This document shows, piece after piece, positions 3,006 to 29,114 of a stretch of DNA of 64,000 nt. The notes beneath the pieces are model-generated. The model worked only from the letters and a program-made list of their open reading frames with translations, searched no databases and was not told the DNA's origin. Every line of letters begins with the position of its first letter. Position 1 is the first letter of the stretch. Location: contig JAQCEO010000001.1 of assembly GCA_027729805.1 (NCBI GenBank), positions 10,621-74,620 of the forward strand, in the 5' to 3' direction. Source of the stretch: Actinomycetota bacterium. GTDB lineage: Bacteria; Actinomycetota; Actinomycetes; S36-B12. Made by a program: the position numbers and the translations under genes.

Positions 3006-3260
3006 GTGCACGCTAGCGTTGCTCGGATGAAGATGTACACGACGGTTTGGTGTGGCTACTGCCAGCGGCTAAAAGCCCAGCTGGGGCGTGCGGGCATTGC
3101 CTTCGAAGAGGTCGATATTGAAGTTGATCCGGCGGCCGCGGCATTTGTTGAATCCGTCAACGGGGGTAACCAGACCGTACCCACCATGCTCTTTGACGAT
3201 GGCAGTGCGTTAGCTAATCCGTCGATCGGCCAGGTGAAGGCGAAACTGGGCCTGTCCTAG
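3006..3260 (+). CDS. Glutaredoxin-like / mycoredoxin-like small thiol oxidoreductase
   Basis: CxxC active site WCGYC in an ~80-aa protein. The real start is probably the ATG at 3027 (MKMYTT). Confidence 0.8.
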   Translation: MHASVARMKMYTTVWCGYCQRLKAQLGRAGIAFEEVDIEVDPAAAAFVESVNGGNQTVPTMLFDDGSALANPSIGQVKAKLGLS

Positions 3261-4213: not shown

Positions 4214-5149
4214 TTACCAAGACCAAGCGTCCGGTAACTCCTGCCCGTACCAACGCTCGATCAATCTGCGGGAGATCGAAATAGCCGACGGCAATTTGAT
4301 CTCACCCACCGCGCAGGCAGCGCGCAGTTCATCGCGGCTATACCAATTGGCCTCGGCTATCTCGGTCTCATCGACTTTGATCGTGGAGTCCTTGGCCCAG
4401 GCGTGGTAGCCCAACATCAAAGACGCCGGGAACGGCCACGGTTGGCTTCCGAGATACTGCACCGCGTCTGGGTGGTCGTCGATCAGGACGCCGGTTTCCT
4501 CGGCTAGTTCCCGACGCACCGCGGCCTCCGCTGATTCACCGGCTTCAACGAACCCGGCAAAAGTGGAAACCAGGCCGGGCGGCCAATTCACATGTCGCCC
4601 CAAGAGCGCTCGGTCCTCGCCATCGCGAACCAGCACAATCACCGCCGGCTCGGTGCGCGGAAAGTGGTCTACCCCATCGACACTGCAGTGCAGGGACCAG
4701 CCGCCGTGCTGCGCGACCAACGCACCTCCGCATTTCGCGCAACGTTGGGTTGCCGTGCGCCAGTTGTCAAGTGCAACCGCAGTTACCATTAAGCCGGCAT
4801 CACTATCACTTAGGGATCGGCCAACCTCGCGCAGTGACTTCCAGTCCGATTGGACCGGTGCATCATCAGGTGATTGGACATGGGACGCGAAGTAGGCCCG
4901 ATCAAGAGAGTCAACACCGAGAAAGCTCAATTCAACTTCGGGTGCGAGGTCACTCGCTGGGGTAAATACCAACTCGACGCCGCCAGCCACCTCGGTGCAG
5001 GCACCGGCGCCCGCCGCCACCCAAAGCACCTTGGAGCCTAGGTCGCACCGGCGCTCAAGTAGCCATTCTTGGTCGGTGCGCCGGTGGGCCACCCGATCTA
5101 TCTCGGCCCGCGATAACAGCAGGTCATCAAGGAGCAGGGGGCTGGGCAC
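4214..5149 (-). CDS. nudC: NADH pyrophosphatase (Nudix hydrolase NudC)
   Basis: Nudix box GFVEAGESAEAAVRRELAEETGV. Zinc-ribbon cysteines CAKCGG...HC lie upstream of it. Confidence 0.85.
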   Translation of the reverse strand: MPSPLLLDDLLLSRAEIDRVAHRRTDQEWLLERRCDLGSKVLWVAAGAGACTEVAGGVELVFTPASDLAPEVELSFLGVDSLDRAYFASHVQSPDDAPVQSDWKSLREVGRSLSDSDAGLMVTAVALDNWRTATQRCAKCGGALVAQHGGWSLHCSVDGVDHFPRTEPAVIVLVRDGEDRALLGRHVNWPPGLVSTFAGFVEAGESAEAAVRRELAEETGVLIDDHPDAVQYLGSQPWPFPASLMLGYHAWAKDSTIKVDETEIAEANWYSRDELRAACAVGEIKLPSAISISRRLIERWYGQELPDAWSW

Positions 5150-5152
5150 CCC

Positions 5153-6517
5153 TTGAGCCTATTGGCCCGGTGGCCCGAATCGGTGCGCCCTGCCAAGCCA
5201 GTAGCGACTGACATGACACCATCACCTGTTGTGAACGTCTTCATCCGCCAGTTAACCGGCATCCGCTTCATTGCCGCCGCGTGGGTGCTGCTGTATCACT
5301 TACAAGGACCACTTAACACCCTCGGCCTATTGGCCATCCCGATCCTGCCGGATGTCATGCGCGTTGGCAGGCTCGGTGTCGACCTCTTCTTCGCCCTCTC
5401 CGGTTTCATCCTCACCCACACTTACTTAACCCGACTCGGCCCCCGCTTATCGGGGCGCAAAACAATTGATTTTTGGTGGCTGCGATTGGCCCGCGTGTAC
5501 CCGGTGCACTTGGTCATGCTCGTCATCGCGGGTGTAGCGGTTTTCGCGCAGGCGAAAATTTCTGGCACCGAACTTGACCGCGATTGGTTGAACCCGCTTG
5601 ACTTCGGCAAGAACTTGCTACTGGTGCAGGAGTGGGGGCCCAGCCCACAGCGTGGCTGGAATTTCGTCGCTTGGACACTTTCGATGGAGTGGCTTGCCTA
5701 TCTGCTCTTCCCGCTGCTTATTTTGCTCATTTGGGTTTTCTATCGCCGTGTTAGTACCACTTTCTTGGTAATCGCTTGGGTGGTCGTACTTATTCCGGTC
5801 ATCATTTACGGATTGAATACTTCTGACCCCTACTACACCGATAACTGGGGTTCCACCTACCGCATCCTGTGCGAGTTCACCGCCGGCGCTATCACCTATT
5901 TGATCGTGCGCCGCTTCTTGCCCGAAGCCGCCGCCGACCCCAAGCCCAATATTGAAAAACTCGCTAGCGCCCTGGCTGTGGTGCTGCCTTTACTCGTAAT
6001 CACCGGGTCGGTCGTCCTCGGCAACTTACCGGCCGCGCAGCCTCCTGCGGTTGACTTAGGCCCCGATGCGGAAGCTCTCCCACCCTATTTTCATCTCCTG
6101 CTCGTGCCCTTTCTAGTTGCCTGGATCGGCGCCCTCGCCCTTTCGCGGCGTGGCCTAGCCCGCACCCTGTCAACCCGCACCATGGTGCTAGGTGGCTTCA
6201 TCTCCTACTCCCTGTACATGACACACCTGGTTTGGTTCGGGCTCTGGCGGGCCGGGATGGACGCGGTTGGCATTGACGGTGGTGCGCTCTATGCCATCGG
6301 CACCCTTGGCTTGGTGGCCGGCGCACTAGCGATCGCCTGGTTGATGTGGCGCTTTGTTGAGGAACCGGCACGCGAGTGGATGCGCGCCCTGGCCGGTGCC
6401 AGACGCACCCCGACCGAAGAAGCCGGTGAGCAACTTGCGGTGCGGGCACATGGCGGTGACAGCGCCGAGCCCATCATCGTGCCGGGTAATGAAGACGGCC
6501 CCGGCGCGGTTCGCTAA
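5153..6517 (+). CDS. Acyltransferase family 3 (OafA/YrhL-like) integral membrane protein
   Basis: Multi-pass membrane protein with N-terminal LTGIRFIAAAWVLLYH and DLFFALSGF motifs. Start may be the internal M at about 5213. Confidence 0.75.
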   Translation: MSLLARWPESVRPAKPVATDMTPSPVVNVFIRQLTGIRFIAAAWVLLYHLQGPLNTLGLLAIPILPDVMRVGRLGVDLFFALSGFILTHTYLTRLGPRLSGRKTIDFWWLRLARVYPVHLVMLVIAGVAVFAQAKISGTELDRDWLNPLDFGKNLLLVQEWGPSPQRGWNFVAWTLSMEWLAYLLFPLLILLIWVFYRRVSTTFLVIAWVVVLIPVIIYGLNTSDPYYTDNWGSTYRILCEFTAGAITYLIVRRFLPEAAADPKPNIEKLASALAVVLPLLVITGSVVLGNLPAAQPPAVDLGPDAEALPPYFHLLLVPFLVAWIGALALSRRGLARTLSTRTMVLGGFISYSLYMTHLVWFGLWRAGMDAVGIDGGALYAIGTLGLVAGALAIAWLMWRFVEEPAREWMRALAGARRTPTEEAGEQLAVRAHGGDSAEPIIVPGNEDGPGAVR

Positions 6518-6518
6518 C

Positions 6519-9500
6519 TCAAGGGAAGTCCAGGCTCGGTAGCGGCTGGGGCCGGATAATTTCACCGGTTGCCACCATCACAAACCCCGCGTCGATATCG
6601 GCTATTGGTACACCACGCAACTTTGACCAAGCCTGTCGATACAGCGCCAACTGATATGGATCGATGGACGCCGCGGACCCGGTCTTCCAGTCGATAACGT
6701 CATAGCGATCACCATTCTTAAAGACCGCATCGATCCGGCCTTTGATGACCCGCCCACCCAAAATCAAGGCGAATGGCTCTTCAATTGCGATGGGTTGAAG
6801 TTTGGCGTAGGCGGATTTCTCGAAAGCCTGCTTTAACTCCTCGAGTTGGGTATCGCTCGTGATGTCGTGATCTGCGGACCCGGGCAGCTCATCAGGGTCC
6901 AGCAGACTTTGTTGACCAAACCGGCTCTCGAGCCAAAGGTGGAAACTGGTACCGCGCCGGGCCGCGGGCGCTGGCTGCCGGGGTAGCGGCCTGGCCAGGC
7001 GCATCGCGGTCCCGGCCGGGTCGCGCAGCGCATCGATGAGCGCACTTGCCGAAAGTGAATCCGGTAGGCGCACGGTGTGAATCAACTCCCGGCGTCGCCT
7101 TGCCTCCGTAAGCAAGCTCTCGGCATCACGATCCCAGTGGGAAATGAGCTCGGTCTCACCTGCCGAAAGCTGTGCAGCAGAGTCCGGCGCGGTGGTCACC
7201 GACAACGGCGCCAACATTGCCGCACGTACCTGATCACCTACCTGGCGCACCTTTGCAGCGGTGGCAATTGGCGCCGGCCACGCGTGCGTGAGGGTGCCCG
7301 CATCCGGTGCCGGGTTGGTGGCGTCGTCGGCCGGTTGCGGGTGCCAGTAGATGACCTCACCTGCTCCGTCGAGACAAGTATCGCGAATCATCGTCAAATA
7401 GGGGTCGGGGCCGCGGAACTTAATTTGGGTCGGCCCCCACCAATGCCCGGTGACGGTTAGTGAGTACTCGGCGCGGGTAAATGCCACATAGGCCAGGCGT
7501 TGGTCATCGGCTACTTGGTAATCGCGCAAAATCACTTGATAGGCCTTGTGGTCTTTATCGCGCGGGCTTACATCTAGGTCAGGGAAAGAGGCGAGGTCAT
7601 CGGTTACATCAGCACGCAACTGCCAGGGCACCGCTGCCGCACTAGTTGGCCAGGCGCTGCGCCCGACGCCGCCGGGGAATGCCCCCTTGGCCACCGACGG
7701 CACGAAAACATGCGGGTATTCCAACCCCTTGGCTTTGTGAATAGTCAGCAACTGCACCGCGTTTTCCCGCAGGACGATATCAACGGGCAACCCAACGTCG
7801 AATCGTTCGGCATCGGCCAACCGGCTCAAGAAAGCCCCGAGGGTGTGACCACCGTCGATGTCGGTGAACTCCGCCGCGAGGTCGAGCAAACTGGTGACGG
7901 CATATTGCTGCTGCTCAGCGCTGTCCGCTACCGCAATCTCAACCGAAAGCCCGGTCGAAGCCAAAATGCGGTTGATCAGATCAGTTAATGGCTCACCCAC
8001 ATGGCGGCGCAATTGCACGATCTCGGCGGCAAGTGCGGTAAGCCTTGCGCCCGCGGCCTGCGAGTAAGCGGCCAGATCACCGAGATCGGCCAGTGCATCG
8101 GATAGTGAGATTGCCTCAACCGGATCACTGCCGGCCACCGCCTCATCGAGGGCACCCGTGACATCGGTGGTGACCTGCCGATGGCCACCCCCGGCGAGTA
8201 CCCCGGCCCTCTTACCCAGCGCCGCTAGATCACGTACCCCGATTCGCCACCTTGGGCCGGTGAGAATGCGCACCAACGCCGGGTTCGCAATCGGGTTGTG
8301 CAGTACCTCCAGCATGCTGCGGATCTCAATAACCGCCGGTTGCCGCAATAGCCCGGCCGCCCCATGTAGCTGCGTTGGGATGCCCTGGGCGCGCAAGGCG
8401 GTATCGAGTTCAACTAGATCGCGGCCGGTGGCGGCCAAGATCGCGATATCGCCCCATTTGACTTTCGTTCCGCGCGCACCACCTAATCGTGCAATCTCCT
8501 GCACCATCCAAGTTTTTTCCGCATCCGCGGTTTCAAATAATGCGCATTGCACTTTGCCAGGTCCCCGGTCAGGTGATCCGGCCTTCAATACATCGATACC
8601 CGGGTGCCGCTGACGCAGTTCGGTCGAGATGTCATTGGCGACCGCCAAGATCGCCGGCCCAGATCTGCGATTGGTCGCTAGCGGATACGACACCGGCTCG
8701 GACTCCACGCCATTGCGCTGTACTTTGAAGTGCTCCCTGAACGAGTCGATGTTGTCAACGCTGGCCCCGCGGAAACCATAAATCGCCTGGCACGGGTCAC
8801 CGACCGCCGTAACCGGATGACCGTTGCCGAATAACCCTTGCAACAACATCCGCTGGGCCAGCGAAGTGTCCTGGTACTCATCAAGTAACACCACCTGGAT
8901 GCGCGCCCGAAGCTTCACGGCAATATCTGGGTATTTGTTCACCAACTCAAGGGCCACCCGGGTTTGATCGGCGAAGTCTTGGACATCGCGCGCTAGTTTC
9001 TCGGCGCGCCATTCAATGACCAACCCAGCCAGCGCCACCCGCAGCTTCGAGGTCTCGAGCATCTTCTTCCCGATCCCCTGCAAGGAGTCATGCCCTAGTA
9101 GTTGAGCAATTGACTCTTGATCGCACTCGATGAGTTGCTCGGGCTTGATGGCCAGATCCGCGAGCTGGTCATCCAGGGCCAATAGCTCACCGGTCAACTT
9201 GACCGGTGACTTACCGAAATCCGCCAACGGCAATGCGGTGCGGCAGACCACCCGGTAGGCCAGTTGGTGGCGCGCACCATCTGCGAGCAAAGTGCTGCCC
9301 TGCTCTAGACCAAGGCGCATACCGTTCTCATCAATAATGCGTTTGGCGAAGGCATGATAGGTGAGCACCTGCGGATCACCGGTGCTTTCATCCTCGTATT
9401 CAGGCTCGCGCTCAGTATTAATAAAGCTAGGGTCGATCAAGCCCGCAGTTTCAAGGCGCGACAAACTAGATCGCATCGAACCGAGTAACCCGGCTGCGGC

Positions 9501-9716: not shown

Positions 9717-12700
9717 AAGACCACCTGCGCACCCTCAGGCTGCGCTGGGCAATTGCGTTTATGCGCGCAGAACATGCAATGGGAGCCGGTTACCGCGGTG
9801 AACTCCTCCGTCCGCAAAGTCTGCGCGGCGGCGCCAAGCTCAAGATCCACCCAGGTAGGTGAGACTTGTTCCAATGGCTCTTGGAACTGCACTTTGGGTT
9901 CCAACGCACCCTTGCTGGCATTAACACGAAGTTGCACGAGTGCGGCGCCTCCGACCTCATGCCCGCCAGCGCGGAGCAAAGACTGATAGACCCCGAGTTG
10001 GGCGTGCTCTGGCACTTTGCTGTCGGCCGGCGGGGTCTTCATATTCTTCAGGTCAATCGCGACCGACCGGCCTTGGCTATCTATCTCAATGCGATCAAGG
10101 AAGCCGCGCAAGTGCACCCGCTCCAGACCACCGGCCGGTGTCGGCACCTCTACGAATGCCTCTTCGGACTCCTCACTTGCCACCAACCGCCGATCGGCGC
10201 GCAGGTGATAGACCAAGAAACGCGTCAGGGCCTCGCGGGCCTGCGCTCGCTCCGCCGCTGATTGCCACGCGGACTCAAATCTAAGATCCGGCCAAACGCG
10301 ATCAACCAAGGCGTCCATACTGTCAATATCTGCCGACACCTCATCCTTGGCGACATAGTCGGCAACCGCGTGCACCACGCTGCCGAATTTCGTGGCCGCC
10401 GGGCGCAGGGTTTCGGCCCGGGCCTCATGCTCGAAGTACCAGCGCAGAGCGCAGCTATTGATGGACTCAAGGCCACTACCCGACAAGGTGATCGGCACAT
10501 CAGCTGATCGCACCGGGTGCGCACCTTCGGTGACCGCACCGATCGCCCACCACGAATCCGGATTGGCCACCGGCACCAGTGGCTCACCACTTTCGTCCTC
10601 AGCCCCCGCCAAGGAGGCCAACCGGGCAACCGCGGCCTCTCGCAGGGCCGGCGAACTCTCCTCGTCCATGCAGGTTTGACGCAGCCGCGCAACCAAGCCA
10701 TCAAGGGCGGCGGTAAAACGCGGTCGCCCAGATTTAGTCTCGGCAACCACTCCTAAGGCGCCGATAAACCGGCTCGGCTGTGGCCCGGTGTCAGTGCCAG
10801 ATGCAATAGCGGTGACCACGACGCGTTGCCGGGCCCGCGTGCAAGCGACATAGAACAGTCGGCGCTCCTCGGCCAGGAGATCGGCCGGGCGCACGCCATC
10901 TCCGACCCCGGCCCGGGTTAACCGGTCCGGCTCCAGAATCGAACCGCGGGTGCGCAGATCCGGCCACTGGCCCTCCTCGGTGCCAACCACCCAGACGGCC
11001 TCCCACTCCAGCCCCTTGGCCCGGTGTGCGGTCAAGATCCGCACCGCATCACTGCTGAGCGACCGATCGGCCACCGATTCGGCCGGTAGTTGCTGATTGC
11101 TCAGCAAAATCAAGAAGTTGCGCAAGCCCGCGAACCCTTTATACCGAGATTGGGTGCGCTCGGCGGTTTCGAATAACGCGATGACGGCGTCAAGGTCATG
11201 GTGTGCCGCGCGCGAACCCGCAAGTGCAGCATTTTGTAACCGCTCCGGCCAACCATGTGACCGCCCGCCAGCGAGTTGTTCGCGGGCAACCCGACCGGAC
11301 CAAATAGTCCAAAGCACAGCCTCTGGTGCAGCACCCGAGCGAATAAGTTGGTGCGCGGCCCGAAGTAGCGCGGTGCTGCGTTCGACGGCCAATCGGGCGG
11401 GGTCGGTAGCGGGCAAGGTGGCTGGGATCTCTAGATCACCGCGCAAAGTGTCGCGGATAAGTTGATCGGAAAACCCGGGCGGGGTCAGCGGATCGGCTAA
11501 CCGCGCCGCCGCGCGTAAGGCCCGGCCAAACCGCCGCAATTCGGCGGCATCAAGACCACCGAGTGGGCCGGTGAGTAGATCAACTGCCTGCTCCGCGGTG
11601 ATTCGACTCGGGTCGATCGCCATCTCGGCCACCTGCAGCAGCACGGCAACCGCCGGCTCCGCGCGTAAGGGGATTTCATCGGCCGCGATTGTGGTCGGCA
11701 CCCCTGCTTGCATCAGGGCCCGCTGCACGAGGGGGATCTGCCGCGCTGATCGCACTAGCACCGCCAGATCGGCCCAAGGGAGCCCATCGTCTAGGTGTGC
11801 GCGGCGAATTTGCTCTGCGATGTGGGCCGCCCGTGATGACTCACTATCGAAGAGTTGGACTTCAACGGTGTCGGTCGCGGTCTGGCCAGCTACCGGCGAA
11901 CCGCCAAGGCAGCTGGGGTTTCGATGTGCGTGCACCTGCTCCTTGGTGAAGGAGCCAATCGGCCGGGCACCGAGGATTGCGGTCGCGGCCTTGCGAATAT
12001 TTGGCCCAAACCGGCGAGTGCGCTGCAAGATAACAGTGGGCGCCGGCTCCCCGGTGCTGGTGCGAAATTGCTCGGGGAAATTCAAGATCCCATGGATGTC
12101 GGCGCCCCGAAACCCGTAGATCGCCTGGTCGGGATCCCCGACGACAACCAAGCTGGTGCGCGGGCCCACTAGGGCTTTGAGTAACTCGACCTGTAGTTGA
12201 TCGGTATCTTGATACTCGTCGACGTAGATAGCTCGATAAGTACGGTGCATCTGGGCGGCAACATCTGGGGCGCGCGCCGCGATCACCGCGCGGTGCAGGA
12301 GTTCGGTGTAATCACAAACATTCTCCAGCACCATCACGGCGCTCTCTTGTTCGGCGAGGGCGCCCAGGGCCGCCCAAGCTGGCCGGCCAGATCTCGCGCC
12401 GATGCGCTCAAGTTGCCCGGGGTCTAGGCCGAGCTCCCGGGCCCGCGCGAGCACCGACCTGATCTCATTGGCCAAACCCAAAGTGGTGACGGCGCCGGCT
12501 AACTCTTCGGGCCAGTTGATGGTGCCATCTTGTAGGGCGCCTACCAGCAGATCGCGAATACGAACATCTTCTTCGGCCCCGGAAAGTAGCCGCGGTGGAT
12601 CGCGCAGCTCCCCAACCGTTGCGGTTTGTTGCATCAGCCCGTACGCGAAGGAATGAAATGTCGCAACCAGCGGGCTCACCCCGCCCCCGAGCCGCTGCAC

Positions 12701-13033: not shown

Positions 13034-15426
13034 CCGATAGCCAGCCTCTGGGCGCCGGCGGGGTCCAGATCAACGATGAGGTCATCGCCCGGCGGGTGCG
13101 CCGACCCTTAGACCTCGCGCGCTTTGTGCTCGCCGTTGCCATCACCGGCGCCATTATTGGGATCGGCTGGTTTGCCACTAGCACGACCGCCGGCCTTGAG
13201 GATGATGTCACCAGCGGGGTCCAGTCACTGCCCTCGGTGGTGATCTTGGCCCTCAATGTCATCGGCGGTATCGGCACCTTGGGTTTGCCACTTGCCGCCG
13301 GTGTTGCATTGGTGGTGCGCCGCCGCGCACGCCAACTTTTTGACGCGGTGATCGCGCTGCTAGCAGCGGTCATCTTGCTGACAATTGCCTCCACGGCGGT
13401 ATCAAATAGTGGGGTACCACGCTTACTGGTCGCACTAGCCGGCTCGACCAGCCCCGATAGCGCATCAACGGCGCCGATCCTTGCCGGCCTGATCGCCTTC
13501 ATCACGGTGGCCCGCCTGCTCGCGGTGCGACCCTGGAATGTATTTAGTTTCCTCGTTATCGGCTCGGTCATCATTGTTACGGTATTGAGCTCGGGTATCG
13601 CCCTCGCCGGAGTCGGCATCAGTATTGCCCTGGGCTGGGCCATCGGCCTGCTGACGCGTTACGCGCTCGGCACCCCAACAACCAGGCCGACCGGTCAGGA
13701 AGTCGCCACCGCCCTCGCGCGCGGTGGCTACCCACTTATTTCACTCGATGCCGAAACCACCACCGCCCGCGGTCGCCGGTATAGCGCGGTCACCCGATCC
13801 GGTGCCCGGTTACGAATCAACGTGCTAAACCGCGACTTAGAAGGTGCCGGCTTGGTCTCGGCATTTTGGACGGCCCTGCGCCTACGTGATGAGCCGGGTA
13901 CGGGTGCTTTCAATATGCGCAGAACCCTGGACAACGCGGCCCTGATCGCATTTGCCGCGACAGCCGCCGGGGTGCCCACCCCGCGCCTACTCCTGGCCAC
14001 CGAGATCGGCCCGGACTCAAGTTTGCTCGCCTACGAGTTCATCGACGGTGAGCTTTTTGCGAATATCTCTGAGTCAAGTGTCGGCGGCGCCCTAAGTGAC
14101 GCCGATCTGCAAGGGGCCTGGCGAGCCGTGCGCACCTTGCACGAACACCAAAGCAGCCACCGTGCGCTGTCGGCCGATCACCTGCTGCGCGCCACCGATG
14201 GCAGTATTTGGATTGTCGGCCACGGTGGTGGCTCGATCGCCGCAAGTGACGTTGCCCAGCGCATTGACCTCGCCGAACTGCTCTGCACCCTCGCACTGCT
14301 CACCAGTGTTGAGCGCGCCGTGGAAGCCGGTCGGCTCATCCTCGGCATCGATGCCCTAACCCGCGCGCTACCCGCCCTGCAGCCGGTCGCCCTGTCGGGC
14401 ATGACGCGCAAGGCGGTGCGCAAGAACCGGCAACTTCTCGTGAGCCTGCGCGACACCTTGCTCGGCCTGCGCGAAGGTGGTGAGATCGAGCAGATCAAAC
14501 TTGAGCGAGTACGCCCTCGTACGCTGCTGATGATCATCGTCGGCTCGATTGCCGGCTATCTCTTGCTTTCGCAATTGGCCCAGGTTGATCTTGTTAATCT
14601 CTTCAGCACCGCGAACTGGGGTTGGGTACTCCTTTCACTGATTTTGAGCCTCGTGACCTTCGTGGCGGCGGTTTGGTCACTCACCGGATTCGTGCCGGAG
14701 CGCATACCCATCCACCGCACCTTCTTAGCCCAACTCGCCGGCGCGTTTGCCACCTTGGTTTCACCGCCAACCCTTGGCTCGGTTGCGATCAATATTCGCT
14801 TCCTGCAAAAGGCCGGACTCCACCCCGCCCTTTCCGCGGCCAGCGTTGGTGTCTCCCAGGTCATGGCCTTTACCTCACATATCCTGCTGCTTTTCGTGTT
14901 CGGTATCGCTGCCGGAACTCAGTCGGATCTAACTTTTAATCCCCCACGGATCGTCGTGATCGCGGTGATCGCGGTCGCCGCCTGCGCCATCGCACTACTT
15001 GCCGTACCAGCCGTGCGAAAACTCATCACCTCCCGGGTTGGGCCCATCCTCAAGGAGGTCGGCCCGCGCCTGGTCACCGTCGCCCAACGCCCCGGCAAAC
15101 TCATCGAAGGTGTCGGCGGCATCTTGCTGCTGAACCTGGCCTTCATCGGCGTGCTCTATGCCGCCGTCAATGCCTTCGGCGGCCAGCTGGGTATTGCACT
15201 AGTAGCCGTGGTTTATCTCGCCGGTGCAACTATCGGTCAGGCCGCGCCAACCCCCGGTGGACTCGGCGCCGTCGAGGCCGCCCTTGCTGCTGGCCTCACC
15301 GCGGCCGGACTCGACGGTGGGATCGCGGTGTCGGCCGTGCTGCTGTTTCGACTCGTGACATTTTGGCTACCAACCGTGCCCGGCTACTTTGCCTTCAACT
15401 GGCTAACCAAAAAAGGTGCCCTCTAG
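13021..15426 (+). CDS. Large polytopic membrane protein with C-terminal flippase-like / lysyl-PG-synthase-TM-like (UPF0104) region
   Basis: 801 aa. N- and C-terminal blocks of TM helices flank a soluble central region. Family assignment is by recollection only. Confidence 0.5.
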   Translation: MTVTPDSQPLGAGGVQINDEVIARRVRRPLDLARFVLAVAITGAIIGIGWFATSTTAGLEDDVTSGVQSLPSVVILALNVIGGIGTLGLPLAAGVALVVRRRARQLFDAVIALLAAVILLTIASTAVSNSGVPRLLVALAGSTSPDSASTAPILAGLIAFITVARLLAVRPWNVFSFLVIGSVIIVTVLSSGIALAGVGISIALGWAIGLLTRYALGTPTTRPTGQEVATALARGGYPLISLDAETTTARGRRYSAVTRSGARLRINVLNRDLEGAGLVSAFWTALRLRDEPGTGAFNMRRTLDNAALIAFAATAAGVPTPRLLLATEIGPDSSLLAYEFIDGELFANISESSVGGALSDADLQGAWRAVRTLHEHQSSHRALSADHLLRATDGSIWIVGHGGGSIAASDVAQRIDLAELLCTLALLTSVERAVEAGRLILGIDALTRALPALQPVALSGMTRKAVRKNRQLLVSLRDTLLGLREGGEIEQIKLERVRPRTLLMIIVGSIAGYLLLSQLAQVDLVNLFSTANWGWVLLSLILSLVTFVAAVWSLTGFVPERIPIHRTFLAQLAGAFATLVSPPTLGSVAINIRFLQKAGLHPALSAASVGVSQVMAFTSHILLLFVFGIAAGTQSDLTFNPPRIVVIAVIAVAACAIALLAVPAVRKLITSRVGPILKEVGPRLVTVAQRPGKLIEGVGGILLLNLAFIGVLYAAVNAFGGQLGIALVAVVYLAGATIGQAAPTPGGLGAVEAALAAGLTAAGLDGGIAVSAVLLFRLVTFWLPTVPGYFAFNWLTKKGAL

Positions 15427-15450
15427 CCCCAACTAGGGCATGATGCAACC

Positions 15451-15663
15451 ATGAGCGAATCCGAAGTCACGATCACTGTCCTGGCCGATGGCCCCCTCGA
15501 AGTCACCGGCCCCTGCACCATCAATGCCGCCGACGGCAGCACCCTGAAAACTGGTGACAAGGCCTACCTCTGCCGCTGCGGCGAGTCGGCCAAGAAGCCG
15601 TTTTGCGATGGCAGCCATAAGCGCACGGGCTTTAGTGATCCAGGGCTCGGCCAGCCGGCCTAA
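15451..15663 (+). CDS. CDGSH iron-sulfur domain protein
   Basis: Signature CRCGESAKKPFCDGSH in a 70-aa protein. Confidence 0.9.
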   Translation: MSESEVTITVLADGPLEVTGPCTINAADGSTLKTGDKAYLCRCGESAKKPFCDGSHKRTGFSDPGLGQPA

Positions 15664-15889
15664 ACAAAACACTGCAGGAATTGCTCATCGGTTTGGGCGA
15701 AGTCAGGCGACATCCAGATACGACCTTTCATGGCACCGGGCGGGCGTGCCGTCATCTGGGGTGGTGATGCGTTAGCCGCTCAATGGGGCGGCCAGCGCGG
15801 GCGATCACTACTTCCTCCCCTGCTTCCACAACTGCTAGGAGCGCGAAGAATGGCGCCTTGGCCTCGCCTAAGTTCACAGTTTTGGTCAC
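15660..15889 (-). pseudogene. Phd/YefM-type (VapB-like) antitoxin, frameshifted, with no partner toxin
   Basis: My own translation from the GTG at 15889 gives VTKTVNLGEAKAPFFALLAVVEAGEEVVIARAGRPIERLTHHHPR*. The +1 frame continues PQMTARPPGAMKGRIWMSPDFAQTDEQFLQCFV*. The length of 230 nt is not a multiple of 3, and one extra C in the C4 run (15758-15761) would restore the frame. Confidence 0.6.
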
Positions 15890-16070
15890 GACTACATGTC
15901 GCCGGACTCACGCGCTCAAGTCAAAGATATTGGACCTTGCCCTTGAATAGCCGCAAAGGGCACCCTTGATCCACCTCATGCATCAGGTGTACGACCGCGA
16001 CAACCGAGCGTGTACGTACATCATCCATGCCAAAACATGACATACGGGAATTTCTTTCTTCTGCCCCTTG

Positions 16071-17360
16071 TCAATAGCCCAACCCGTGCAGTAACCCCAG
16101 CCTCGTGCCGGGAAGTTTACACCGGAGGGAGAGAGACATTTCCCAACCGCGCACCTCTCGATAGATAAAATAGATGAGAAGTTTACACCGGAGGGAGAGA
16201 GACATTTCCCAACGCACCTCGCCCCGCCCTTCGACCTGGCGAAGCAGATCGGTGCGGCCCGCCCGCTGGGTGGGCCGGCCGGCGGAGCAATCGAGGAAGT
16301 CGGTCACCGTCAGCCGCGGCCAGACGGTCTTGAGGATCAGCGAATGGCCGTCGTACTGCTGCTGCGGGGCCGACGAATCGGCTGCGGGCTCGATCGTGAA
16401 GTGCCCGGCCGACTCACCCCCCACGAGCCCGGCGAACAGCGCTGGTCCGTCCACCCGCGGGGCACACATCCAGACGAGCCTGGCGCCGGGGGCCACCAGC
16501 GCCATCACCCGGCCGTCTGCGAGCAAAGCGTGCCGCTCGATCGGCACCGCGCCGGCCCCGGCCAGCCACGCCTCCCGCAGGCCGGCCAGCCGCGCGAGCC
16601 GGCGGGCCACGTCGGTCGGATCGGTTATCCGGTAGGTGGCTGCGGTCTCACCCGTCCCCACCTTGACCGAGACGTCCGGCCCGTGCAGCCTGACAAACGC
16701 ATCCTCGTCGGTCACGTCATCGCCGAAGTAGACGACGGCCGTGGCCCCGACCCGGTGCCGCAGCGCATCGATGGCCTCCCCTTTGGAAGTGTCGACCACC
16801 GTCAACTCGAGCACTTTCTTGCCCGCCTTGACCCGCACGTCGGCCCAGGTCGCCGCGCCGCCGAGCAGTTCCTCGACCGCCGAGTCGGCCACGGGGTCGG
16901 CGACGTTCCGATAGTGGAATGCGACCGAGGCCGGCTTGGGTTCGATCCGAAATCGCGGGTCGCGGGCGGCGATCCGGTGCATCTCGTCGAGCAGCTGCTG
17001 CCGGAGTTCCACCTGCTGCCCAGTGAGCGAGCGGACAAAATCCTGATCGAACTCGCTGCCGTGCGAGCCGACGAGCATCACCTGGCCGTCGAGAGCCGAG
17101 AGGGCGGCGAGGTCGGCGAGCGACCGCCCCGAGATCACGGCCGCGTGGGTTGAGCCGAGCGCGGCGACGGCCCGCAGGGCCACGATCGACTCGCGCACCG
17201 GAACAGCCTCCGCGGGGTCGTTCACGATCGGGGCGAGCGTGCCGTCGTAGTCCGTCGCCACGAGCAGCACCGGCACCTGCGCGATCGCCTCCAGGGCCCG
17301 GTCGAGATCGTCGAGGGTCGGCTGGCAGTCGCCGGCGGGCGGGGCGTTTGTGCCTGTCAC
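16071..17360 (-). CDS. otsB: Trehalose-6-phosphate phosphatase (HAD, OtsB) fused to an N-terminal fragment of a GH15 glycoside hydrolase domain; 3'-truncated at the repeat
   Basis: HAD motif LLVATDYDGTLAP. After about aa 270 comes GH15-like N-domain sequence (IERHALLADGRVMALV...). The native sequence ends at about 16214. The last ~48 codons are read through the two repeats into host DNA. The GTG start overlaps the otsA stop (GTGA). Confidence 0.8.
   Translation of the reverse strand: MTGTNAPPAGDCQPTLDDLDRALEAIAQVPVLLVATDYDGTLAPIVNDPAEAVPVRESIVALRAVAALGSTHAAVISGRSLADLAALSALDGQVMLVGSHGSEFDQDFVRSLTGQQVELRQQLLDEMHRIAARDPRFRIEPKPASVAFHYRNVADPVADSAVEELLGGAATWADVRVKAGKKVLELTVVDTSKGEAIDALRHRVGATAVVYFGDDVTDEDAFVRLHGPDVSVKVGTGETAATYRITDPTDVARRLARLAGLREAWLAGAGAVPIERHALLADGRVMALVAPGARLVWMCAPRVDGPALFAGLVGGESAGHFTIEPAADSSAPQQQYDGHSLILKTVWPRLTVTDFLDCSAGRPTQRAGRTDLLRQVEGRGEVRWEMSLSLRCKLLIYFIYREVRGWEMSLSLRCKLPGTRLGLLHGLGY
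16112..16147 (+). repeat. 36-nt repeat, copy 1 (gaagtttacaccggagggagagagacatttcccaac)
   Basis: Identical to copy 2. A 30-nt unique sequence (16148-16177) separates them. Confidence 0.95.
16178..16213 (+). repeat. 36-nt repeat, copy 2, abutting the left edge of the GC-rich block
   Basis: 36/36 identical to copy 1, period 66 nt. Both copies are followed by gcacctc (after an extra cgc in copy 1). Confidence 0.95.
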
Positions 17361-18814
17361 CGCGCGTCTCCTGCCGCCAGGGCTGCCGAGCTACCGTGGG
17401 CCGGGCCGGCGAGTACCGCGATGAATTCGTCGGCCCAGTCGTAGGCGGTTCGCTTCCGCACCCGCTGTCGTAGACTCCGCATCCGCCGGGCCTGCTCGTC
17501 CCGGGGCATCGCGATCGCCCGTTCGATCGTCACGGCCATCCCGTCGATGTCGTGGGGGTTCACGAGCACCGCCCGCTGGAGTTCGTGGGCCGCGCCGGTG
17601 AACTCCGAAAGCACGAGCACGCCCGTGTCGTCCCGTCGGGCGGCGCAATACTCCTTGGCCACGAGGTTCATCCCGTCGCGGAGCGACGTGACGAGCATGA
17701 GGTCGGCGGCCAGGTAATAGGCCACGAGTTTCTCGATCGGCAGGCTGCGGGGGAGGTAATGCACCGGCACCTGCCCCACCTCGCCGAACTCACCGTTGAT
17801 GTGGCCGACGAGCGTCTCGATCCGCTCCCGTATCTCGATGTATTCGTCGACCTGATCCCGGGAGGGCACGCTCACCTGCACGAGCACGAGATCCCGCACC
17901 GTGTGCCTGCCGGCCGCGAGAATCTCGTGAAAGGCCCGGATTCGATGATCGATGCCCTTGGTGTAGTCGAGCCGGTCGACGCCGAGCATGATCGTGCGAT
18001 TTGGCCCGAGTTCGGCCCGGATCTCACGGGCCCGCTCGATCGTAGCCGGATCGGCCGCGAGCTGGTCGATCTTCCAGTAATCGATCGAGATCGGGAATTC
18101 CCGCACCTCGACCCGCCTGCCATACACGCTGATCGAGTGACTCGCGCCGCGGTGGGGCGTGTAGCGATTGACCAGCCGGATGAAATTCCCGGCGCCCTGC
18201 TTCGTCTGAAAGCCGACGACGTCGGCCCCGAGCAGGCCTTCGAGAATCCGCTGCCGCCAGGGCAGTTGGGAAAAAAGCTCGACCGGAGGAAACGGGATGT
18301 GGAGAAAGAAGCCGATCCGGAGGTCGGGCCGCATCCGCCGCAGCATGCCGGGCACGAGCTGCAGGTGGTAATCCTGCACCAGCACGCTCGCCCCGGGGGC
18401 CGCCTCCCGGGCGGCGACCTCGGCAAACCGTTCATTGACCGTGACGTAGGGCTGCCACCATTGCCGGTGAAACTGCGGCTGCTGACAGGCATCGTGGTAG
18501 AGCGGCCAGAGCGTGCTGTTGGCGAAGCCCTCGTAGTAGTCGCGAACCTCGTCGGCCGAGAGCGAGACCGGCACGTTCCAGAGCCCGTCGTGGCGAAAGG
18601 GGGCGATCTCGCCGGACGCGCGGCCCCCCCCCCAGCCGACCCAGACGCCTTGCCGCTTCTGCAACAACGGCAGCAGGCCAGAGACAAGCCCGCCGGGACT
18701 CGTCTCCCAGCCGCCGTCGGTCCGATGGACCGGCAGTCGATTCGCCACGACAACCAGGTCGCCGCGGCCGCCCCCATCCAAGGCGGGAGGCGCCGGGTTC
18801 TCGTCTCCGCACAT
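17357..18814 (-). CDS. otsA: Trehalose-6-phosphate synthase (GT20, OtsA)
   Basis: VVVANRLP, LWPLYH, DYHL, LGVDRLDYTKG and RDGMNLVAKEY motifs. I prefer the ATG at 18814 (MCGDEN...) over the ORF-track start at 18892, which overlaps the upstream gene. Confidence 0.9.
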   Translation of the reverse strand: MCGDENPAPPALDGGGRGDLVVVANRLPVHRTDGGWETSPGGLVSGLLPLLQKRQGVWVGWGGGRASGEIAPFRHDGLWNVPVSLSADEVRDYYEGFANSTLWPLYHDACQQPQFHRQWWQPYVTVNERFAEVAAREAAPGASVLVQDYHLQLVPGMLRRMRPDLRIGFFLHIPFPPVELFSQLPWRQRILEGLLGADVVGFQTKQGAGNFIRLVNRYTPHRGASHSISVYGRRVEVREFPISIDYWKIDQLAADPATIERAREIRAELGPNRTIMLGVDRLDYTKGIDHRIRAFHEILAAGRHTVRDLVLVQVSVPSRDQVDEYIEIRERIETLVGHINGEFGEVGQVPVHYLPRSLPIEKLVAYYLAADLMLVTSLRDGMNLVAKEYCAARRDDTGVLVLSEFTGAAHELQRAVLVNPHDIDGMAVTIERAIAMPRDEQARRMRSLRQRVRKRTAYDWADEFIAVLAGPAHGSSAALAAGDAR

Positions 18815-18869
18815 GACAGAATTGTAATACCGGCTGTCTGGAAGGGACAACCGCGGGCTCGAGGCCGCC

Positions 18870-19391
18870 TCAGGGCTCGGCCGACTCTTCACTCGGGCCG
18901 TCGAGGGATTTCAGCCGTTCGGCGATCGCATCGGCCATGCTCGTGTTGCCGGCTGCCCGAAACCGTTCTTCGGCGCGGGTGAAGCAGGCCGACGCCTCGA
19001 CGCGATTGCCTTGGCGGGCCAGCACGACTCCGAGGTTGTATTCGAACACGGGCGACGCGGGGTCGAGCCGTACGGCCCGGCGGAAGGCGCCGACGGCCTC
19101 TTCGAGCCGGCCGATCCGCTCGAGCACGCTGCCGAGATTGTTGGCCGCCACCGCCGCACGGGGGTCGCCATCCACGGCCCGGCGGTAGGCTGCCGCCGCC
19201 TCGTCGAGTCGTCCGGCGGCATCGAGCGCGCGGCCGAGCGTCATCGCCGCCGCCGACCCGCCGCCACCGGCCTCGGCCTTGAAGTTGTCACCGGAGGGAG
19301 AGAGACATTTCCCAACGACGTTCTCCAAGATCGGAATCACTCGTTGGGAAATGTCTCTCTCCCTCCTCGCAACGTCCATCGCATGACTCAA
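18870..19391 (-). CDS. TPR-repeat protein fragment (native 5' end missing; the first ~37 codons of the ORF come from the repeat/hairpin and host DNA)
   Basis: About three TPR-like units (AYRRAVDGDP..., AFRRAVRLDP..., ACFTRAEE...). The ORF crosses the 19280/19281 junction. The first in-block ATG is at 19244. Confidence 0.6.
   Translation of the reverse strand: MSHAMDVARRERDISQRVIPILENVVGKCLSPSGDNFKAEAGGGGSAAAMTLGRALDAAGRLDEAAAAYRRAVDGDPRAAVAANNLGSVLERIGRLEEAVGAFRRAVRLDPASPVFEYNLGVVLARQGNRVEASACFTRAEERFRAAGNTSMADAIAERLKSLDGPSEESAEP
19281..19316 (+). repeat. 36-nt repeat, copy 3 (34/36 identical), abutting the right edge of the GC-rich block
   Basis: gaagttGTcaccggagggagagagacatttcccaac differs from copies 1 and 2 only at positions 7-8. 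Confidence 0.95.
19341..19376 (-). repeat. Inverted copy of the 36-nt repeat (anti-repeat), forming a long hairpin with copy 3
   Basis: 19341-19366 is the exact reverse complement of 19293-19318 (26 bp), with a 22-nt loop at 19319-19340. The outer 10 positions add 7 Watson-Crick pairs and 1 G-U pair after a 2-nt bulge. Confidence 0.9.
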
Positions 19392-19466: not shown

Positions 19467-20657
19467 TTAGTAGGAGGGCTTAGCCGGCTCAATCTGAGCA
19501 ACCCAAGCATTGATCCCGCCACCAACATGGATGGCATCGGTGAAGCCAGCCCCATGCACAACGGCGAGGGCCTCGGCCGACCGGCCACCGACCTTGCAGT
19601 AGAGCACGATCTGCTTATCCGTTGGCAGCGACGTGAGCGCCGATCCGTCAAGGAATTGACCCTTGGGGATGAGCACAGCGCCTGGGATTTGCACAATCTC
19701 CCATTCCACCGGTTCGCGAACATCGATCAGCGCGAAGTCCCGAGCACCCACCTCGCGCTCATCAAGCATTGCCTTTAACTGCAGCACCGAGATGGTCGAG
19801 TCACGGGCGGCATTAGCCGCCTCTTCCGAAATGCTGCCGCAGAACGCCTCGTAGTCGATTAGCTCGGTGACCGTCGGGTTAGCACCGCAGACGGCGCAGT
19901 TTGGATCCTTGCGGATCTTTACCTGCCGATAAGTCATTTCGAGTGCGTCATAAATCATCAGCCGGCCAAGGAGTGGCTCACCGATCCCCGCGAGCAATTT
20001 GATGGCCTCGGTGACTTGGATCGAACCGATGGATGCACACAGCACACCGAGCACCCCACCTTCGGCGCAACTTGGCACCATGCCCGGCGGCGGCGGCTCC
20101 GGATAAAGGCAGCGGTAGCAGGGGCCGTACTCGGCCCAGAACACCGATGCCTGACCGTCAAAGCGGTAGATCGAACCCCACACATAAGGCTTGCCGAGAA
20201 GGACGCAGGCGTCGTTGACCAAATAGCGAGTCGCGAAGTTGTCGGTGCCATCAACTATCAGGTCGTACTGGGCGAACAACTCCATCACATTGGATGAGTC
20301 CAAGCGCTCTTGATGCAATTGCACATTGACATACGGGTTGGTTTCGAGCACCCGCTCCCGAGCACTCTCGGCCTTGGGTCGGCCGATGTCCTTTTGGCTA
20401 TGGATGATCTGGCGTTGCAGGTTTGATTCATCAACCACATCGAACTCAACGATGCCTAAGGTGCCGACCCCGGCGGCGGCCAGGTAGAGCAGGGCCGGGC
20501 TGCCGAGGCCACCGGCACCAACACAGAGCACCTTGGCATTTTTTAGGCGCTTTTGGCCCGCCATGCCGACATCGGGGATGATCAAGTGGCGGCTATAGCG
20601 CCGGACTTCGTCGGACGTTAACTCAGCGGCTGGGTCAACGAGTGGGGGCAGGTGCAT
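19467..20657 (-). CDS. moeZ: MoeZ/MoeB-type adenylyltransferase-sulfurtransferase (ThiF domain + C-terminal rhodanese)
   Basis: GAGGLGSP nucleotide loop, CxxC pairs, and a C-terminal rhodanese with YCKVGGRS. I prefer the start at the ATG at 20657 (MHLPPLVD...) over the extended ORF start at 20768. Confidence 0.9.
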   Translation of the reverse strand: MHLPPLVDPAAELTSDEVRRYSRHLIIPDVGMAGQKRLKNAKVLCVGAGGLGSPALLYLAAAGVGTLGIVEFDVVDESNLQRQIIHSQKDIGRPKAESARERVLETNPYVNVQLHQERLDSSNVMELFAQYDLIVDGTDNFATRYLVNDACVLLGKPYVWGSIYRFDGQASVFWAEYGPCYRCLYPEPPPPGMVPSCAEGGVLGVLCASIGSIQVTEAIKLLAGIGEPLLGRLMIYDALEMTYRQVKIRKDPNCAVCGANPTVTELIDYEAFCGSISEEAANAARDSTISVLQLKAMLDEREVGARDFALIDVREPVEWEIVQIPGAVLIPKGQFLDGSALTSLPTDKQIVLYCKVGGRSAEALAVVHGAGFTDAIHVGGGINAWVAQIEPAKPSY

Positions 20658-28370: not shown

Positions 28371-29114
28371 ATGAGGTATTTCTTAGGGATGGCTTCCCCG
28401 CCCAAACGACGCGTCTTGGTCGCCCTGGTTTCCACACTGGTCGCAGTGGCCTTGGTCTCATCCGCGGCGCTAACCGTGTCGGCGGCCACGAACTCCGCTG
28501 CACCGGCCAGCACCACCTTGGCTCCTGAGCCCCGATCAACAACCGGCCCGACTGCTACGGCCAGCCCGAGCCCGACTGCTACGGCCAGCCCGAGCCCGAC
28601 TGCTACGGCCAGCCCAGATTCCACGGCCAACCCTGGGCCGGTGAAAGTGCGCAAACCTAAACCGGCGAGTAGAACCCAAAAAGCCCGCAATGTGCCAGAG
28701 TTCCCGCGCGATACGCACCAGGGTCGCCGCATCGTTTACGACAAGGCCCTGATGACCGTTTGGGTGATGGGTGAGCGGGACCAAGTAATTGGCCGGTACC
28801 CGGTCGTCGGCCGCTTTGATCGCCCGGTAATGGGCACCTACAAAATCTTTTCCAAGTCCAAAGTCGCTTATAACCCGAACTCGAAAGTCACTTTCAACCA
28901 CATGATGCGTTTCACCTACGGCCCTGATACCAAATCACCAATCGGCCTGCACGCCATCCCGCGCTATTACGACGGCACGGAGATGCACTCGGTTAAGCAA
29001 CTGGGCCTAGCGATTGCCGCGGGTGGCTGCGTTCGACTTTCCGAGGAGGCCGCGGCCGCCATCTACAAGTGGGTTAAAGTTGGCGATCGCGTCATCGTGC
29101 TGCCATCCCCGTAG
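28371..29114 (+). CDS. L,D-transpeptidase (YkuD domain) with signal anchor and Thr/Ala/Ser/Pro repeat linker
   Basis: Catalytic HAIP...AGGCVRL motif. N-terminal hydrophobic segment followed by (TATASPSP)x3. Confidence 0.85.
   Translation: MRYFLGMASPPKRRVLVALVSTLVAVALVSSAALTVSAATNSAAPASTTLAPEPRSTTGPTATASPSPTATASPSPTATASPDSTANPGPVKVRKPKPASRTQKARNVPEFPRDTHQGRRIVYDKALMTVWVMGERDQVIGRYPVVGRFDRPVMGTYKIFSKSKVAYNPNSKVTFNHMMRFTYGPDTKSPIGLHAIPRYYDGTEMHSVKQLGLAIAAGGCVRLSEEAAAAIYKWVKVGDRVIVLPSP
28545..28615. repeat. 24-bp in-frame tandem repeat (~2.7 copies) inside the L,D-transpeptidase linker
   Basis: actgctacggccagcccgagcccg at 28551-28574 and 28575-28598, plus a partial third copy. It encodes TATASPSP units. 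Confidence 0.9.

Follow-up and report, generated by a model that had tools for sequence, protein, structure and literature searches.

The 64-kb stretch of actinobacterial DNA analysed here (contig JAQCEO010000001.1; hereafter the window) contains an orphan, cas-less remnant of a type II-C CRISPR array, namely the cas-proximal end of such an array, and one of its spacer slots is filled by 3,067 bp of DNA that is foreign to the host. Taken as a whole, the probable account of this locus is that of a decayed type II-C array that lost its cas genes and into which the 3-kb block had been integrated as a spacer by Cas1-Cas2. The parts of this account differ in strength: there is very little doubt that the repeats are a genuine type II-C relic, and we are just as confident that the block is real DNA sitting exactly in a spacer slot, while the agency of Cas1-Cas2 in its integration is a proposition that might go either way. 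Orphan arrays are common and, on their own, routine; a kilobase insert in a spacer slot is out of the ordinary. The locus belongs to a freshwater actinobacterial metagenome-assembled genome (MAG; NCBI proteins MDA3021069.1 and MDA3021071.1), and for this source organism the repeat-copy, tblastn and RNA searches reported below cover the 64-kb window.

Layout of the array remnant

Copies A and B of the repeat (16112-16147 and 16178-16213, minus strand) are perfect 36-nt direct repeats (GAAGTTTACACCGGAGGGAGAGAGACATTTCCCAAC; GTTGGGAAATGTCTCTCTCCCTCCGGTGTAAACTTC in the sense of the CRISPR RNA, crRNA) that enclose a spacer-like unique sequence of 30 nt (16148-16177, minus strand), and none of 100 dinucleotide shuffles gave such a match. 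This unit had been recognised in the initial annotation, whose description of it is borne out in detail: the 3' 17 nt of the 30-mer are AT-rich and hold 3 G/C, the repeat starts GTTGGGAAA on the minus strand, and an open reading frame (ORF; 16071..17360, minus strand) passes through the unit, where it is a by-product of the 66-nt period. The same annotation counted only two units, which is too few. A third direct copy, C (19281-19316, minus strand), differs from A and B by two mismatches, reading GAAGTTGTCACC... in place of GAAGTTTACACC..., and the 24-nt core of the repeat, GGAGGGAGAGAGACATTTCCCAAC, occurs once more, inverted and perfect, as copy D (19343-19366, minus strand), 26 nt past copy C (loop at 19317-19342, minus strand).

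All four repeat copies of the window fall in this one locus. On the crRNA strand, the minus strand of the window, their order is D, 26 nt, C, the 3,067-nt insert, B, the 30-nt spacer, A and then what is left of the sequence found upstream of the trans-activating CRISPR RNA (tracrRNA) gene in intact relatives. The A-30 nt-B unit is near the array geometry of the repeat family, its spacer being 2 nt above the usual 28 nt; B-3,067 nt-C is outside that geometry.

No protospacer was detected for the 30-nt spacer in IMG/VR, phages or plasmids: exact scans of IMG/VR with the 30-mer and with a 23-mer gave no match, and blastn of the 30-mer against phage and plasmid collections, a search that the initial annotation had proposed, gave matches at chance level only (E of at least 2). 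Two other origins were considered and rejected. As an anti-cas spacer, the sequence would be expected in related cas loci, where no match exists for the 30-mer, nor for the 26-nt loop or the 16 nt that precede copy A; as a decayed tracrRNA tail, the 30-mer has only the hexamer CTCGAT in common with the tracrRNA, and neither blast nor a covariance model (R1) built from five tracrRNAs gave support.

A repeat family with intact type II-C members

An exact-match scan of the 24-nt core against 185,579 species genomes returned one stretch, at the end of a 121-kb Nanopelagicales MAG contig (L001), and the corresponding scans returned two metagenome stretches (contigs L002 and L003) and no viral stretch. 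In these public scans the core was found solely in arrays or in the window's own locus; copies dispersed in the manner of repetitive extragenic palindromes (REP) or miniature inverted-repeat transposable elements (MITE), which the initial annotation had named as evidence against a CRISPR, did not appear. On L001, cas1-cas2 are followed by the repeat GAAGTTTACAGCGGAGGGAGAGAGACATTTCCCAAC (GAAGTTTACAGCGGAGGG...CCCAAC), a 28-nt spacer and the next repeat. Contig L002 carries a complete locus, with a tracrRNA, Cas9 (1,097 aa; Pfam Cas9_a, RuvC_III, HNH, Cas9_Topo and Cas9_C), Cas1, Cas2 and then an array of period 64, and the layout is the same on the contigs that encode Cas9 relatives (L005-L009). 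The arrays of L005 and L006 comprise 27 and 31 repeats of 36 nt, respectively, with spacers of 28 nt and one of 29 nt; across the relatives, 60+ spacers measure 28 nt (56 of the spacers are from L005 and L006) and one measures 29 nt. Repeats that follow cas9-cas1-cas2 in L001, L002, L008 and L009 differ from the window repeat by 1-3 nt. The CRISPR reading of the unit is upheld by this family, and of the two geometries first proposed for it, type II or type VI-B, the former stands and the latter falls, since the associated effector is Cas9.

In the intact loci, the tracrRNA is made up of an anti-repeat (GAAGTGCGGAAAGAGAGACATTTCCCAAT), the trinucleotide AAG, a nexus hairpin in which clades differ by compensatory changes, and a terminator rich in GC. 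Its gene and cas9 share a strand; crRNAs are therefore read from the opposite strand, which corresponds to the minus strand of the window, where the repeat begins GTTGGGAAATG (GTTGGG...). All repeat variants of the family keep TA[AG]ACTTC at the 3' end, with neighbouring positions varying, and TA[AG]ACT is a likely repeat-internal -10 box. In type II-C systems, array transcription runs towards the cas genes, with a promoter in every repeat, new spacers enter at the last-transcribed repeat, and the first-transcribed repeat is the oldest, or 'extra', one (PMC12080349). By this orientation logic, copy C is the extra repeat of the window.

The family resembles type II-C loci of the Neisseria meningitidis / Campylobacter jejuni type and of the actinobacterial Cas9 clade in its 36-nt repeats starting with GTTG, in the order cas9-cas1-cas2-array, in transcription towards cas and in the TA[AG]ACT box (architecture as in PMC12080349), and its intact members resemble them also in the anti-repeat, nexus hairpin and terminator of the tracrRNA. 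The window is unlike these loci in having no effector, no adaptation genes and no tracrRNA, in the three repeats that are left, and in the contents of its slots, one holding 3,067 nt and the other a spacer of 30 rather than 28 nt. A search of Rfam with the window, L002 and L006 yielded no family for either the repeats or the tracrRNA.

A further conserved feature was observed next to cas2. A hairpin, CTTCAGGTCATCCC...GGGATGACCTGAAG, at L001 1196-1226 extends over 4 nt, the first ones, of the repeat nearest to cas2 and also precedes the first repeat in L002, L005, L006, L008 and L009. Along the crRNA strand, TCGTTTTT comes after the hairpin, which looks like a terminator of array transcription; the hairpin may also be part of the leader-repeat junction used in acquisition.

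A foreign chromosomal block between two repeats

The block between copies B and C (16214..19280, minus strand) has a GC content of 69.7%, compared with 59.9% in the rest of the window, and holds one complete gene between two truncated ones. The complete gene, otsA (17357..18814, minus strand), encodes a trehalose-6-phosphate synthase of 485 aa (Pfam Glyco_transf_20, E = 8.6e-142) that is identical to NCBI MDA3021069.1 ('MAG: Actinomycetota bacterium'). On one side of it, otsB' (16214..17360, minus strand) represents the N-terminal ~380 codons of a trehalose-phosphatase/TREH_N/GH15 gene of ~857 aa, with Pfam matches to Trehalose_PPase and to part of TREH_N, and is cut by repeat B. On the other side, TPR' (18870..19280, minus strand; Pfam TPR families) represents the C-terminal ~135 codons of a TPR gene of ~672 aa and is cut by repeat C. 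The donor-type cluster, TPR (672-701 aa)-otsA-otsB/TREH_N/GH15 (857-861 aa), is conserved in contigs L010-L014, with the TPR homologues upstream of otsA in L010-L013 and full-length otsB homologues in L010, L013 and L014.

With the closest of the compared donor-type contigs, L010, the block aligns colinearly (blastn) at 83% identity over 16215-18840 and at 80% over 18899-19280. This homology starts at 19280, copy C starting at 19281, and ends at 16215, copy B ending at 16213; the junctions lie on the repeat edges, exactly at C and within 1 nt at B, with no leftover spacer bases and no microhomology. Two earlier views give way here. The GC-rich segment had been taken for a block of the host and is instead a 3,067-bp foreign insert inside the array, in spacer position, and the gcacctc that follows copy B, from which the duplication of a repeat-plus-flank unit had been proposed, is the first 7 nt of the foreign block and aligns to L010.

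The closest relatives of the window OtsA reach up to 86% aa identity and lie on contigs with a GC content of 64.5% (L013) and 68.3% (L010). The neighbours in L010 are N_methyl/SBP_bac_10 (DUF1559) genes, and the more distant named OtsA matches come from Phycisphaerales and Planctomycetota. Its GC content, its high-GC relatives with planctomycete-type neighbours and the truncation of genes at both of its ends mark the block as foreign to the host, and a planctomycete chromosome is the probable donor. The Pfam scan of the block found only TPR, GT20 and trehalose-phosphatase/TREH_N domains, with no transposase and no integrase, and no inverted repeat is formed by the block ends (GCACCTCGCC... and ...GGCCTCGGCCTT). 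The block further contains a sigma-70-like site, TTGTCC-18 nt-TACAAT (18821-18850, minus strand), which ends 7 nt before the otsA start region (18814); this may be the otsA promoter of the donor, brought in together with the block.

The same arrangement was recovered from other assemblies. An ENA assembly of SAMN03444948 (L004) shares the architecture and is 99.96% identical to the window across 9,650 nt; L016, a Logan assembly of SRR2027830, ends in copy C beside moeZ. A 46-kb scaffold from another sample (L015; SAMN03444961) represents a distinct strain, 99.2% identical, with a flank divergence of 0.8-1.7% and nine single-nucleotide polymorphisms (SNPs) of its own inside the block, and keeps the order D-C-block-B-30-A. 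The donor-like sequence has no k-mer in common with the repeat at either junction, so that a de Bruijn assembly graph could not have made the joins of the block. Copy C of L015 is identical to A and B; the two mismatches of the window copy (TA->GT at 19287-19288, removing the TA of the -10-like TAAACT box) are therefore derived, and the repeats that flank the block were originally identical. The window copy C with its lost TA sits directly upstream of the captured TPR'-otsA-otsB'; the box is intact in L015.

Loss of the cas genes at the ancestral site

The remnant is bordered on the left by a conserved zf-CDGSH gene (15451..15663, plus strand; L004 gene call, PF09360), homologous to L002 131-305, and on the right by a conserved moeZ (ThiF and rhodanese domains; 19467..20657, minus strand). 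L002 131-305, comprising the 3' part of zf-CDGSH with the nucleotides that directly follow, has an 81% match to window 15518-15692, and the window shares this chromosomal site, downstream of zf-CDGSH, with the intact L002 locus. The 219 nt before copy A (15893..16111, plus strand) are a remnant of the region upstream of the tracrRNA gene in intact relatives: in a global alignment with L002 421-628, 136 of 231 columns were identical (z = 6.6 relative to shuffles). This alignment places copy A at the anti-repeat position of L002 and L008, and no tracrRNA tail follows it.

Searches by tblastn with the L002 proteins found no cas9, cas1 or cas2 in the 64 kb (E of at least 0.058), in agreement with the initial annotation, and the tracrRNA covariance model scored at most 16 bits in the window, compared with 85-112 bits in intact loci. 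The decayed locus without cas genes that had been envisaged among other explanations is accordingly what is found, in the form of an orphan remnant at the ancestral site. With neither Cas9 nor a tracrRNA, the relic cannot give immunity from the content of the window. In the L002 contig itself, the first 141 nt (2-142) are the inverted 3' end of the LPG-synthase gene (window 15306-15446), fused inside zf-CDGSH; either the inversion is genuine or the start of the contig was chimerically assembled.

The tracrRNA anti-repeat has the orientation of the repeat, of which it is a diverged copy, and the whole cas operon of the intact loci is therefore bracketed by direct repeats. In the lineage of the window, the tracrRNA body, cas9, cas1, cas2 and the leader would have been deleted with a junction at or next to the anti-repeat, and a deletion between anti-repeat and repeat would yield the remnant observed. 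Recombination of this kind is a route of cas loss that we regard as neither favoured nor disfavoured. The end-point at the anti-repeat suggests a fragility built into the type II-C architecture.

How the block entered the array

The reading that we prefer is that a 3-kb foreign chromosomal fragment entered the spacer slot before the cas genes were lost: Cas1-Cas2 would have integrated a kilobase prespacer, ~100 times the normal length, and duplicated the repeat in doing so, and the loss of the cas genes would have followed. Exact edges together with originally identical flanking repeats are the product expected of Cas1-Cas2 integration with repeat duplication. The foreign and randomly truncated cargo, and a block free of transposase, integrase and terminal inverted repeats, also speak in favour of integration. 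To our knowledge, Cas1-Cas2 integration is the only activity that cuts both borders of a repeat and leaves the insert between identical repeats.

Several points weigh against this reading. We know of no Cas1-Cas2 that integrates kilobase DNA, and our literature searches for kilobase spacers, or for genes flanked by CRISPR repeats, returned nothing relevant. Spacer length in type II is tightly set, at 28-29 nt compared with the 3,067 nt of the block, and the 30-nt spacer itself exceeds the family norm by 2 nt. The closest donor-like sequence is only 83% identical to the block. The block occupies the oldest slot, and for this the array must have comprised one repeat when the block came in, or else have lost older spacers afterwards. 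The motif GCACCTC is common to the 30-nt spacer and the start of the block, at a near-equal offset; we estimate that this would occur by chance in 1-2% of cases. On the other side of the relic, 18 nt separate the last tracrRNA-upstream homology from copy A, compared with 4-7 nt in L002 and L008. This extra stretch may be a lineage-specific indel or a leftover spacer fragment; in the latter case the cas deletion was non-homologous, as it may have been given the unclean junction on the A side. The search for cas genes covered the 64-kb window, and a cas locus may exist elsewhere in the genome. Lastly, all of the sequences compared are metagenome assemblies, and L015 has a scaffold gap of 100 N (12547-12646) between two repeat copies in the left flank, such that this strain, and perhaps also the genome of the window, may contain more repeat-spacer units than were assembled.

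Among the alternatives, the one that survives best, although we consider it unlikely, accepts the array relic as real and has the block enter without Cas1-Cas2, by illegitimate capture of the non-homologous end-joining type at a break or by recombination with an existing repeat-block-repeat. End-joining repair is present in Actinobacteria, the interval between zf-CDGSH and moeZ is a variable hot spot, and the want of a precedent for kilobase spacers in the literature searches counts in favour of this alternative as well. Contig L003, whose aligned flanks are 82-88% identical to those of the window, provides a related case, in which another segment, of 2.7 kb (DUF4379 gene, host-like GC content), abuts the same edge of copy C exactly and has a repeat on one side only; this arrangement is suggestive and does not decide the origin of the block. 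End joining is opposed by the edge-exact junctions, for which random breakpoints in a 64-nt period give a probability of roughly (1/64)^2, by the lack of leftover spacer bases and microhomology at those junctions, and by flanking repeats that were identical, the state that a repeat duplication leaves. If the block came by recombination with an existing repeat-block-repeat, the same question shifts to another genome, and neither route accounts for the exact edges.

It is improbable that the mini-array (A-30 nt-B, with the 3' end of the block as a further guide) is functional in trans, served by a type II-C cas9 and tracrRNA elsewhere in the genome, or is an anti-cas or regulatory array. Orphan arrays with cas supplied in trans are documented for E. 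coli I-F (PMC8616872), and copies A and B are perfect and keep a TAAACT box matching the repeat-internal promoters of type II-C; even a 3-kb spacer could yield a guide, from its repeat-proximal ~20-24 nt. These features have to be set against the lack of any cas gene or tracrRNA within 64 kb, a 30-mer that matches no cas gene of the relatives and no known phage or plasmid, and the loss of the TA of the box in copy C of the window.

An assembly chimera, with planctomycete reads misjoined to an actinobacterial contig at the repeats, is scarcely credible: the window does come from a MAG, contigs of the relatives routinely break at these repeats, and the scaffold gap of L015 lies in the repeat region, but L004, L015 and L016, three further assemblies that differ in sample or assembler, have the same joins, L015 being a diverged strain with its own SNPs in the block, and no k-mer links the donor-like sequence to the repeat at the junctions. 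Hardly any weight can be given, either, to MITE/REP or transposon ends, with D-C as a mini-element with 24-bp terminal inverted repeats, A, B and C as solo ends and the block mobilised between them; D and C do form a perfect 24-bp inverted repeat 26 nt apart, and direct copies do bracket the block, but the identical sequence builds regular 36/28-nt arrays beside cas9-cas1-cas2 and pairs with a conserved tracrRNA, the four copies of the window lie in a single locus and the core is confined to arrays or this locus in the collection scans, and the block has neither transposase nor integrase, its ends are not inverted repeats and there is no target-site duplication around D-C.

Relation to known systems and implications

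Orphan and degenerate arrays such as the E. coli I-F CRISPR4 (PMC8616872) resemble the window in being small arrays at an ancestral site, with relatives that keep the full system; unlike CRISPR4, the window belongs to type II-C, its spacer does not target cas, and its deletion has an end-point at the anti-repeat. Large DNA also comes to lie between two repeat copies where mobile elements insert into repeats by way of an att site that resembles a repeat, or of a solitary repeat unit (PMC8616872). The block differs from such elements in having no integrase, phage or plasmid genes and in being a colinear TPR-otsA-otsB slice cut inside its end genes. A prophage of S. pyogenes is reportedly a case of mobile-element integration at a CRISPR repeat.

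Casposons and their casposase offer a different parallel, as kilobase DNA with a direct copy of the target on either side. A duplication of this kind is what Cas1-family transesterification should leave when it acts on the two borders of a target the size of a repeat. Unlike a casposon, the block has no casposase, no PolB and no terminal inverted repeats, its target is a CRISPR repeat, and its cargo is a random, truncated fragment.

In its strongest form, integration by Cas1-Cas2 would make this locus a natural fossil in which a type II-C Cas1-Cas2 took up a 3-kb, gene-bearing fragment from another phylum as a spacer, with normal repeat duplication, a claim that we put forward tentatively and with some doubt. 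If it holds, a spacer integrase can occasionally act like a casposase, and arrays are able to capture whole genes. In type II systems, the repeat-proximal ~20-24 nt of a spacer guide Cas9, and type II arrays would tolerate long inserts because this portion alone serves as the guide. Such an event would provide natural evidence that the CRISPR integrase is not strictly bound by its molecular ruler, with a bearing on the casposon origin of adaptation and on the use of Cas1-Cas2 for long-DNA insertion, and CRISPR arrays would be unrecognised entry points for horizontally acquired genes.

A hairpin upstream of the extra repeat

On the crRNA strand, copy D is an anti-repeat upstream of copy C, and D-C folds as a perfect 24-bp helix (-69 kcal/mol, z = -8.5). 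The arrangement is conserved in L003, L004, L015 and L016, and the 26-nt loop is conserved in L003 at 23 of its 26 positions. Among the intact loci, the region upstream of the array in L006 folds onto the first ~13 nt of the extra repeat (z = -6.5), a partial analogue, and L005 has nothing comparable. A search of Rfam with the D-C hairpin gave only sub-threshold look-alikes of plant and animal microRNAs.

Most simply, D-C would be a hairpin that once hid the extra repeat from the tracrRNA, the 26-nt loop being the would-be guide of an extraneous crRNA, and D would in that case have been part of a functional system. In type II-A, a leader-repeat hairpin suppresses extraneous crRNA (Liao et al. 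2022, summarised in PMC12080349); for type II-C, PMC12080349 reports none. The likeness lies in an upstream sequence that is complementary to the first-transcribed repeat and sequesters the part of it that binds the tracrRNA. The differences are that the family studied here is of type II-C, that the inverted copy is perfect over 24 nt, and that it occurs in cas-less relics and in weaker form in the intact L006. A perfect upstream anti-repeat facing the extra repeat would represent a II-A-style answer to the problem of extraneous crRNA, of which none has been reported for type II-C.

Selection on the cargo and possible spread between strains

Comparison of the window with strain L015 revealed seven nonsynonymous changes and one synonymous change in otsA. 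The block as a whole has two synonymous and seven nonsynonymous codon changes, compared with 53 synonymous and 18 nonsynonymous in four flanking host genes (Fisher p = 0.003, on small numbers). The captured otsA evolves without detectable purifying selection and does not look selected. Adaptive gene capture, in which a functional otsA-otsB would have been kept, was considered as an explanation and is unlikely, given the 7:1 ratio of nonsynonymous to synonymous changes in otsA compared with 18:53 in the host genes, although these numbers are small.

The block diverges from that of L015 by 0.29%, less than its flanks (host genes 1-1.7%), and 1.4 kb of the window (15743-17150) have zero SNPs relative to L015. 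This low divergence of the island suggests a recent spread between strains. On the left, the last SNP, at 15742, falls where the homology with L003 ends.

The variable interval and other observations

The contents of the zf-CDGSH-moeZ interval differ in L002, L003, L017 and the window. In L003, the place where the cas genes and array would be is taken by a protein of 710 aa (4910-7042) with nine DUF4379 treble-clef zinc-finger repeats and a weak CapR-homology match. In the same contig, a 1.2-kb segment lies between two copies of the moeZ 3' end (3112-3163 and 4373-4424) and is similar to what follows moeZ in the P0242 lineage; possibly, the CRISPR island came in as an element that integrates at the 3' end of moeZ. 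An island targeting a tRNA gene was also considered and ruled out, the window containing no tRNA genes.

In a sister lineage with a MoeZ that is 96% identical (L017 9310-9720, and L018-L024 from ~9310), the hot spot holds tandem ORFs of 53-61 aa with repeated sequence, at which many contigs break; one ENA record has six of them in a row. These look like an array of small-peptide genes that is not a CRISPR. Elsewhere in the window, TRF reported two short tandem repeats, a perfect one of 24 nt x 2.9 at 28546-28615 and a near-perfect one of 18 nt x 2.9 at 38023-38075.

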